A stretch of 7,092 nucleotides of DNA from Octopus sinensis (Eukaryota), in contig NW_021829051.1 in the NCBI RefSeq assembly GCF_006345805.1, positions 1-7,092 of the forward strand, read 5' to 3'. The notes under the pieces were generated by a model. It made no database searches. It was not told the origin of the DNA and saw only the letters and a list, made by a program, of their open reading frames with translations. The translations under genes and the position numbers were made by a program. The stretch's first letter is position 1. Every line of letters begins with the position of its first letter. Below, piece after piece: positions 2,930 through 7,092 of this stretch.

Positions 2930-3031
2930 GATACATAAATGCACATACATATATATATGATTGTATGTATGTATATGAATAACAATATAGTTTTGAAGAT
3001 TTTCTCGACTTTAATAAACAGTATATATATA

Positions 3032-3074
<43 letters not shown>
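2930..3074. repeat. (TACA)n/(TA)n microsatellite cluster
   Basis: Direct reading; long (TA)n at ~3023-3074. Confidence 0.9.
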
Positions 3075-3078
<4 letters not shown>

Positions 3079-3126
3079 CTGTATAATGTTATCAATGAAA
3101 ATTATGTATTAATGGAAAACCTCTAT

Positions 3127-3218
3127 TAATGGCTGATGATTGCTTAACATTTTAAAACTGTTGTAATACTTACAACATTTAATTAAATGATGTAGCGTGA
3201 AACGGTCGTACCAAATTA
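3127..3218 (+). ncRNA. type I hammerhead ribozyme motif with minimal stem III and extended stem II
   Basis: Stem I UAAUGG (3127-3132) / CC-aa-AUUA (3211-3218). Core CUGAUGA (3133-3139). Stem II UGCU (3141-3144) / AGCG (3194-3197) encloses a perfect 8-bp hairpin UGUUGUAA-uac-UUACAACA. GAAA at 3199-3202. Stem III ACG-gu-CGU. Cleavage triplet GUA, predicted cut after 3210. Confidence 0.7.
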
Positions 3219-3247
3219 CCGAAGTTATTCTTGTTGCTTATTTTGAT

Positions 3248-3347
3248 TATATATATATATATATATATTGGAAGTTTGGAGATGATGTACATGTATTTTA
3301 TATATATATATATATAATATATAACCACCATATGTAATATATATATA

Positions 3348-4512: not shown

Positions 4513-4906
4513 GGATGTGCGGATGTGTGGTAAGAAGCTTTCTTCCTTACCAAATGGCTCCAGGTTCAGTCCTACTGCGTGTCACTTTGGGTAAATGCTT
4601 TCTGCTGTAGCCGCAGACAAACCAATGTGGTTGGATTTGGTTTACGGAAAACTGAAAGCAGCCCATGTGTGTGTGTGTGTGTGTGTGTGTGGTGTGTTTT
4701 AGTCTTCAACCACTGCATGACAACCGGCCGGTGTTGGTTTGTTTACGATACTGTAGCTCAGCGGTTTAGCAAAAGAGACTGACAGAATAAATACCAGTGT
4801 TACAAAAAGAAAATGGTACTGGATCGACATATTCAACTGAAAGATTCTTCAAAGTGGTGCTCCAGCATGACCACATTCAAATGACTAAAATAAGTAAAAG
4901 ATAAAA
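4513..4906 (+). mobile_element. SINE family B, diverged full-length copy
   Basis: GGATGTGTGGTAAGAAGCTT...CAGGTTCAGTCCTACTGCGTGTCACTTTGGGTAAATG, internal (TG)n, and 3' GGTGCTCCAGCATGACCACA...ATGACTAAAATAAGTAAAAG. Colinear with 1312-1738. Confidence 0.88.
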
Positions 4907-5731: not shown

Positions 5732-5826
5732 TTTTTTTTTTATTTTATAAATTAGGGACATTCTCGTGGAAGTTGAACCAAAACAACTCTTTTGAATGAT
5801 CCGGAAAATTACCAAATCTTTTACCA

Positions 5827-6050
5827 TTTATTTGTTTCAGTCATTAGAATGCGGCCATGCTGGAGCACCTCCTTCAAGAAGAATTTTAGTCGGACAAATC
5901 AGTCCCAAGTACTTATTTTTATTAAAGCCTGGTACTTATTCTATTGATTTATTTTATCGAACCGCTAAGTTATGGGTGAATAACCACACCGACACCGGTT
6001 GTTAACGTTCGTGGAGAACAGAGACGTAAACAGACATATGTATATATATG
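5827..6050 (-). mobile_element. SINE family B, 3' half
   Basis: TTTGTTTCAGTCATT...GCGGCCATGCTGGAGCACC...GGTACTTATTCTAT...GAACCGCTAAGTTA...CACCGGTTG; colinear with 1988-2190. Confidence 0.87.
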
Positions 6051-6406: not shown

Positions 6407-6411
<5 letters not shown>

Positions 6412-6718
6412 TATAATATCGATATTTAAATATCGATCTTATCAAGTGGCCAGCATAGGAATAAATACCATACAAAGGTAATAATTATTTAAAACTATAA
6501 ATTAGGGTATCTGAGAGATACCACCATGCTGAAATAGCAGTCAAAATCCTGACCCTAAAGCGACATTAAATGTTCATATAGCGCTAGGAGAGAAGACAGA
6601 GAGACAAAATAAACTAGCAAAAAAGATTTTACTGGATAAATCAAGATCCTGGATTTCTGGCTTTGCATAAGAGAAGCTCTGCCTTCGTCAGTTGAATATA
6701 CCTGATAAGAACATAAAT
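6407..6718 (-). mobile_element. hammerhead-containing repeat unit (Penelope-like terminal repeat or non-LTR retrozyme), copy 1
   Basis: Contains the hammerhead at 6634-6702, several hairpins and a 20-bp palindrome. Its left 44 nt recur at 7049-7092. Flanked by (TA)n and (CA)n. Confidence 0.6.
6634..6702 (-). ncRNA. type I hammerhead ribozyme motif with minimal palindromic stem III
   Basis: Minus strand: GGUAUAUUCAA-CUGACGA-A-GGC-agagcuucucuuaugcaaa-GCC-A-GAAA-UCC-A-GGA-UC-UUGAUUUAUCC. Core CUGACGA (6691-6685), GAAA (6657-6654), stem III AUCC-a-GGAU, AUC triplet (predicted cut between 6645 and 6644), and stem I UCAA/UUGA plus an imperfect extension. Confidence 0.72.
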
Positions 6719-6892: not shown

Positions 6893-7048
6893 AGAACATA
6901 CGTTATACTCACATATACGAACGCTCATACATATAATATGCAAGTATGTACAAGACCAGCTTAAATTGCCCGCCTAACTGCTCCACGCGCGCGATATGGT
7001 CAAAATAAACATCGCAGTGAATACAATGAGGAAATGTATAAATTATAA

Positions 7049-7092
7049 ATAAGGATAATATCGATATTTAAATATCGATCTTATCAAGTGGC
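7049..7092. repeat. direct repeat of 6407-6450, running off the window edge (probable copy 2 of the unit)
   Basis: 43 of 44 nt are identical; 7055-7092 matches 6413-6450 exactly; offset 642 bp. Confidence 0.92.

Follow-up and report, generated by a model that had tools for sequence, protein, structure and literature searches.

The window, meaning the whole 7,092-nt stretch of the Octopus sinensis genome that was analysed, contains a truncated copy of a Hydra-clade Penelope-like element whose 3' end carries a type I hammerhead motif, and the active parents of this copy are likely to cleave their RNA after GUA by pairing stem III with that of a second copy, a reading to which we give a probability of about 0.85. 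The evidence comprises the identity and copy number of the element, a conserved core, covarying stems I to III, and a long, unbranched stem II that recurs in many subfamilies. The class itself is already known, as both Penelope-like elements with dimer-type hammerheads and a Hydra clade from octopus have been described; the first-pass annotation, made from the sequence alone, did not recognise the motif as part of a Penelope-like element, where such ribozymes and insertion into (TA)n have previously been reported. The features of the island are as follows.

3022..3074, no strand: upstream (TA)n flank (sequence)
3075..3247, plus strand: 3' part (pseudo-LTR region) of a Hydra-clade Penelope-like element, truncated at its 5' end and lying in (TA)n (copies have a fixed 3' end and a variable 5' end, and the longer ones show endonuclease and RT upstream)
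3130..3132, plus strand: stem I 5' strand UGG, partner 3211-3213 (descriptor; helix covaries across subfamilies)
3133..3139, plus strand: catalytic box CUGAUGA (descriptor; conservation counts)
3140..3198, plus strand: 59-nt unbranched stem II, with U·U, UGCU/AGCG, a middle helix and an apical hairpin (folding, covariation)
3159..3177, plus strand: apical 8-bp hairpin of stem II with a 3-nt loop (folding; two pairs with changes on both sides)
3182..3187, plus strand: AUUAAA, candidate poly(A) signal (conservation; putative function)
3199..3202, plus strand: catalytic box GAAA (descriptor; conservation counts)
3202..3209, plus strand: palindromic stem III, ACGGUCGU in the window copy and ACGAUCGU or ACAAUUGU in the family (copy comparison, covariation)
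3210..3211, plus strand: predicted cleavage site, after GUA (hammerhead consensus)
3211..3213, plus strand: stem I 3' strand CCA (descriptor, covariation)
3228..3239, plus strand: conserved U/G-rich motif UUCUUGUUGCUU, which may be a downstream poly(A) element or a site for protein binding (conservation)
3248..3268, no strand: downstream (TA)n flank (sequence)

The hammerhead motif in the window

The motif carries the type I core (CUGANGA...GAAA...UH), with CUGAUGA at 3133-3139, GAAA at 3199-3202 and a 59-nt spacer between them (3140-3198); CGGUCG-UA runs to 3210 and is followed by CCA, and three helices surround the core with the ends lying in stem I, which is the type I topology. The first-pass annotation had placed this core here, between (TA)n arrays on both sides, and had listed UGCU/AGCG, CAUUU/AAAUG, an 8-bp hairpin in the stem II region and a U·U at 10.1-11.1, all of which are present. 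It had also drawn stem II as branched, which did not hold: the three helices are nested within one arm, so that stem II is an unbranched rod, and none of 34 folded inserts had more than one hairpin. The 6-bp bulged stem I survives in part, as UGG/CCA is contiguous and gives the only three contiguous pairs of the window copy, but the outer columns are unpaired in 5/34 and 13/34 rows.

With a relaxed type I hammerhead descriptor that allowed spacers of up to 100 nt, only two matches were found in the window, this motif and one at 6691 on the minus strand, and shuffled sequence did not match equally well, any descriptor match occurring in only 5 of 1000 block-wise (local) dinucleotide shuffles. 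The expectation that length-limited searches would miss the motif was borne out: no hammerhead family was among 106 Rfam matches (E ≤ 10), showing that the standard models miss it, likely because of the long insert, and the core-only searches described in PMC8557442 allowed spacers of 7-17 nt. The 92-nt fold has a z of -2.5, and the hammerhead is not its lowest-energy form.

The window copy has drifted from its family at paired positions. Compared with its 29 closest relatives it differs at 3145, 3184 and 3205 within the motif and at 3081, and has a 6-nt upstream deletion. All 29 carry A at 3205, giving a perfect ACGAUCGU in most, and the G·U palindrome of the window is thus a private mutation of a perfect one; that a self-complementary stem III suits dimers was upheld, but the form with two G-U pairs on which this was first argued is found in the window copy alone. 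The stem III self-duplex is predicted at -10.0 kcal/mol for the family form against -5.8 for the window copy (G3205), and G3205 lets the 5' core pair with stem III in a helix. In monomer folding the probability of stem I is ≤0.001 for the window copy and <0.12 in four of six other copies. A hairpin upstream (3107-3131), with a 9-nt direct repeat and an internal palindrome, competes for the stem I 5' strand in the subfamily. As the window itself has no ORF, the motif three private changes and the fold a predicted defect, this copy is likely an inert relic.

The second match belongs to a hammerhead at 6634-6702 on the minus strand, within about 6410-6715 and 6895-7092, with a spacer of 25-27 nt and a stem III of AUCC-N-GGAU. 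Its family is multi-copy (3308 candidates), with inverted partners and TA flanks, and no ORF was linked to it among the copies examined. The view that the two motifs are separate families was supported, and outside the core no similarity was seen (the best local score of 20 was equalled in 81/200 shuffles); the architecture they were said to have in common was not found, as the spacer of the second lies at the edge of the ordinary range. Elsewhere in the window there is an abundant SINE-like repeat, which we take to be of octopus type, at 1312-1735, 1985-2235, 4515-4905 and 5825-6035, also present in many of the fetched loci, and a near-perfect inverted repeat at 2745-2795 (ATATATTGTACGCTTC / GAAGCGTACAATATAT) with AATAAA in its loop.

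The parent element

The 173-nt island between the TA runs is a dispersed repeat with 1524 candidates, and the 40 that were scored are 92-94% identical. A single-copy island, or homologues without the core, had been named beforehand as grounds for doubt; instead the island is multi-copy and its homologues keep the core. The 29 closest copies have a common 3' end near window 3247 and begin at different points, between about 70 and 790 nt upstream of the core, with 14 running into a common optional tail and 15 directly into TA repeats, and an inverted truncated partner lies beside several copies. Truncation at the 5' end, an optional 3' tail and inverted partners are all traits of Penelope-like elements. 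The optional tail is about 100 nt or more, against the 30-40 bp usually described, and holds an ATG reading MDNTIQN (L106:945, L123:2366 onward), possibly an ORF start.

Upstream of the motif in longer copies, and on one strand, come an A/T-rich 3' UTR, a GIY-YIG domain (Pfam PF01541, E 1.5e-4, 22.5 bits, just under the cutoff of 22.6) and then RT motifs (ADKT, FDINNYY and GLYRDD, on the ribozyme strand). In other copies RT together with a C-terminal GIY-YIG domain stands in one ORF on the ribozyme strand, and two related copies have an open RT-endonuclease frame of ~750 codons; the Pfam RT family gave no match on three broken ORF pieces. The Hydra-clade motifs RWK, DKT, CxCx5C, CxxC and CxH are all present, with RWK in L149 (RWI in L054), ADKT in L054 and the last three in dozens of copies, and among 120 homologues DKT/S was found in 102 and ADKG in none. 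Hydra-clade endonucleases lack a CCHH motif; by eye, the domain here resembles that of Hydra-1_Obim. Insertion is into (TA)n as in the Hydra clade, and an Argonauta homologue was found. By its motifs, C-terminal endonuclease and TA insertion the element is assigned to the Hydra clade of Penelope-like elements, a placement made on these sequence characters.

Hydra-clade elements are generally short (<3 kb). The common stretches of these copies reach 2.8 kb without a 5' end, which suggests that the elements may exceed 3 kb; their ORF is extended by asparagine-rich inserts and is followed by a 3' UTR of about 0.6-1.5 kb. Long inserts of this kind lie between RT and endonuclease at L146:1181-3544, L147:1193-3607 and L043:556-1197, and asparagine-rich inserts are mentioned for rotifer Penelope elements too (PMC3846280). 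Pieces of other Hydra-type elements adjoin family copies in L054 (plus strand) and L012:2432-2887 (minus strand).

A Naiad origin was considered because Naiads also insert in (TA)n, some with distant half cores, and was rejected since the endonuclease is C-terminal here and N-terminal in Naiads, a clade described as having no canonical hammerhead (PMC8557442). A non-LTR retrozyme, with tandem non-coding units carrying hammerheads, was likewise set aside, as the copies are dispersed and can be traced to a coding element.

Copy number and selection on the core and stems

Across the genome there are 1856 exact core matches with a 45-75 nt spacer and stem III ACGAUCGU (reversed control 0) and 3025 with stem III ACAAUUGU (reversed control 2), so that about 4900 exact long-spacer cores occur in one genome, about as many as the 4982 with an 8-38 nt spacer (reversed control 5). 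Among the first 100 long-spacer matches listed per pattern, most belong to the clade of the window motif. Spacers in the genome range from 13 to 77 nt, and in 20 fetched examples that look unrelated they measure 45-77 nt, with four or more stem I pairs in 13 of the 20. In one subfamily (L057-L083, L111-L115) numerous motif copies are identical and often form inverted pairs, which suggests that this subfamily was active recently. In several unrelated hammerhead-like motifs (L200, L201, L202, L207 and L224) spacers of 48-77 nt fold with two hairpins, so that other families may have branched stem II arms; in L200 and L224 the spacer itself encloses a second CUGAAGA.

Selection on the core was assessed in copies retrieved in ways other than by the core. 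Loci bearing the endonuclease were chosen so that the sample would not be picked by core: the strict descriptor, with spacers of 6-100 nt, was run downstream of 70 such loci (the top 30 and 40 further down a list of 151) and gave the long-stem motif in 35, other hammerheads in two and no match in 33. In 113 copies retrieved without the core pattern, the core is intact in 95, and its 11 positions show 0 lineage-level against 17 private changes, compared with 99 against 179 in the flanks (p = 0.001). At lineage level none of the 11 core positions changes, whereas N7 is variable.

For the stems, 34 copies were picked to span subfamilies. In these, 90.2% of cells are paired, slid controls pair at 26-52%, and there are 92 double changes against 29 when shuffled; each of the four helices is 86-100% paired and has changes on both sides. 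As the shuffle ignores the relatedness of the copies, a second count of changes was made on a tree built from 170 distinct copies, where the variable stem III pair switches between G-C and A-U on both sides on three branches, keeping the palindrome perfect, and pairs of the apical hairpin shift between U-A and C-G, one of them via U-G. One inner-hairpin pair is C·A in 23/170 copies. Because the tree is drawn from short alignments and inverted partners are non-independent, these change counts are approximate. From the plain alignment, RNAalifold returned stem I and the apical hairpin but placed GAAA in a shifted pairing with stem III and did not find the outer part of stem II, so the pairs of the named structure were counted instead. 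The pattern is consistent with selection acting in active parent lineages and with copies decaying neutrally once inserted.

The long stem II and its relatives

The stem II rod is 55-60 nt across the clade, with some 20 bp interrupted by internal loops, more than twice the length found in related elements of other marine animals. A hammerhead is present in 50 of 79 metagenome contigs that encode related proteins, and the 44 distinct ones have spacers of only 11-25 nt though 100 were allowed; this, together with loops II of 3-10 nt in the published Hydra elements (PMC8557442), makes the long arm look lineage-restricted in this sample, in agreement with the first-pass annotation, which had proposed an enlarged, lineage-specific stem II. 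The short stem II (4-8 bp) typical of dimer-type Penelope hammerheads is absent from the window clade. The mismatch at 10.1-11.1, also put forward as a special feature, turned out to be common, as U·U is found in 20/44 metagenome relatives and 14/25 published Hydra families (PMC8557442). This position varies in the clade (U·U, G-C, G-U, A-U), and U·U is described as the best-tolerated mismatch (PMC3088659).

In other respects the element agrees with the Hydra-clade elements as described by Craig et al. (2021, PMC8557442), which also have a C-terminal GIY-YIG domain, RWK, DKT, CxCx5C, CxxC and CxH, insert in (TA)n and carry a type I hammerhead on the sense strand near the 3' end. Several of the published Hydra rows read AUGG-CUGAUGAU-UGC..U-GAAA..CCA, as here, whereas Hydra-1_Obim, an octopus family given there, has a different, short hammerhead (PMC8557442). 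The metazoan Penelope hammerheads of Cervera and de la Peña (2014, PMC4209133) are similarly type I, with a short helix I, a palindromic helix III and a dimer model, and occur as single truncated copies and close opposite-strand pairs, but have a helix II of 6-8 bp with a conserved G10.1-C11.1 instead of a ~20-bp rod and a variable 10.1-11.1. The spikemoss element PLE-X1 is one published precedent for a long arm: in Selaginella its stem II is enlarged (35-nt loop, about 54 nt in PLE-X1_sMoe) and is marked there as departing from the canonical structure (Craig et al. File S2). Unlike the present case, this is a plant element without an endonuclease, of unrelated sequence and in single families, described there with no covariation analysis (Craig et al. 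File S2). By title and the start of the abstract, in a literature sample with subscription papers mostly outside it, no long stem II or poly(A) signal was reported for Penelope hammerheads, and the main text of an octopus repeat annotation (PMC13282606) mentions neither hammerhead nor ribozyme.

A candidate poly(A) signal within stem II

The 3' arm of stem II contains A(A/U)UAAA in 156/170 copies (AAUAAA in 140, AUUAAA in 16), at -29 to -32 from the predicted cut; 28 of the 29 closest copies have AAUAAA at the equivalent of window 3181-3186. All three lineage-level hexamer changes lead to AUUAAA, against two of 14 private events (p = 0.015), while a column-wise test gave p = 0.49, partly through an alignment shift. 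The U/G-rich motif lies 18-29 nt past the cut, about 40 nt past the hexamer, and is itself conserved (3 lineage-level against 21 private changes, p = 0.024), so that both parts of a canonical signal, A(A/U)UAAA and a downstream U/GU-rich element, are found. In the metagenome relatives A(A/U)UAAA starts at -1 to +10 from the cut in 12/28 families, with 0.93 expected from shuffled flanks; the families with such a cut-adjacent hexamer are on the Hydra-type metagenome contigs L236-L314. No hexamer was found at -1 to +10 in the window motif's clade. These hexamer tests were devised once the motif had been noticed.

Contigs of six runs, guessed to be RNA, were aligned to two family copies and gave no loose poly(A) end near the cut (in the 24 of 93 and 16 of 18 rows displayed) and no start or end peaks, which is evidence neither way since contigs cannot show ends. 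A search with one subfamily pattern found no genomic copies ending in poly(A) near the core. Placement beside or inside structured RNA has viral parallels, in that the antigenomic ribozyme of HDV cuts beside a poly(A) signal and HIV holds its signal in a terminal-repeat hairpin. The Clec2 split hammerhead also tolerates a long insertion, as here (PMC6765202). These are cases from viruses or host mRNA, in contrast to a candidate signal inside stem II of a retrotransposon ribozyme.

From conservation and position, the odds that the long stem II houses the element's poly(A) signal appear about even. A broader and tentative proposal, which we consider possible and rather more doubtful, is that Hydra-clade elements couple the hammerhead to a poly(A) signal, mostly right behind the cut, that the long-stem lineage would have moved this signal into its 60-nt stem II, and that cleavage and polyadenylation would be exclusive, the choice being set by dimer formation.

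Proposed mechanism and alternative explanations

The palindromic stem III is too short to close as a monomer, which is characteristic of the dimer type, and Penelope-type hammerheads are described as cleaving slowly as dimers (PMC4209133, PMC6765202). In a transcript that is tandem or multimeric, two hammerheads would pair via the 8-nt palindrome and cleave slowly after GUA, probably aided by the element's protein, as in an anole element in which cleavage needs that protein (PMC11167929). By staying closed as a rod, the long stem II would still allow the core to form. A CPSF cut 15-25 nt past the hexamer would fall in the GAAA and stem III part, and a ribozyme cut would part the hexamer from the U/G-rich motif, which would make the two ways of ending the RNA mutually exclusive. 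Uncut RNA would serve as the transposition template, because copies continue beyond the cut for about 36 nt or more. Against the main reading we count the low monomer probability of stem I with its competing upstream hairpin, a covariation shuffle blind to relatedness, the 33/70 endonuclease loci without a strict match, the C·A pair, the hexamer's column-wise p of 0.49 and the anole element, whose ribozyme mutants still inserted in vitro and for which no RNA-seq reads ended at the cut (PMC11167929).

The strongest competing account, which in our judgement falls only somewhat short of an even chance, accepts the ribozyme as real and takes the long stem II to be a neutral A/T-rich expansion kept by hairpin closure, with the hexamer conserved for its pairing only. 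The 13-77 nt spread of spacers, the many unrelated long arms that lack a hexamer in stem II, the existence of copies with deletions in the insert, the hexamer's being largely paired in the predicted rod folds and the column-wise p of 0.49 all speak for this account. It sits less easily with the 55-60 nt length, the inner hairpin and the hexamer at -29 to -32 all being kept in subfamilies with endonucleases as little as 59% identical to the query, or with the changes to AUUAAA at lineage level (p = 0.015). Tertiary contact, in which the long stem II meets another loop or the U/G-rich motif and yields a fast monomer ribozyme, is unlikely: conservation is seen in the apical hairpin as well as in the downstream motif, and by eye 3228-3239 could form 5-6 pairs with either hairpin arm, but stem III leaves no room for a loop, its palindrome is kept by compensatory change, which is a dimer signature, and the U/G-rich motif hardly varies and thus offers no covariation in support.

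That the conserved motifs act instead as DNA or protein-binding sites (a pseudo-LTR promoter, or a site for RT or endonuclease), with the core not used catalytically, we regard as very improbable. Pseudo-LTRs do carry promoters (PMC2377424, PMC3846280), and ribozyme activity is described as dispensable in vitro in one element (PMC11167929), yet binding sites would not account for 11 core positions invariant at lineage level while N7 varies, or for three helices that covary as RNA pairs. A chance match could be suspected given A/T-rich DNA and a relaxed descriptor, but is refuted by the 5/1000 shuffles and by thousands of copies against 0 and 2 reversed-control matches, and a host-recruited ribozyme specific to this locus is at odds with a window copy that has drifted from its family at paired positions; together these two explanations are scarcely credible. 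Cleavage by paired copies in active parents is the reading we prefer.

Significance for Penelope-like elements

The many diverged subfamilies provide a natural covariation set that shows selection on both the core and the dimer palindrome. Long-spacer hammerheads escape Rfam, and core-only searches with the 7-17 nt spacer limit used in PMC8557442 would miss them too, so that elements described as having no hammerhead are worth re-examining. The link to the hexamer offers a direct test of what Penelope hammerheads do; if that link is true, these hammerheads would choose between a polyadenylated mRNA and a read-through template for transposition.
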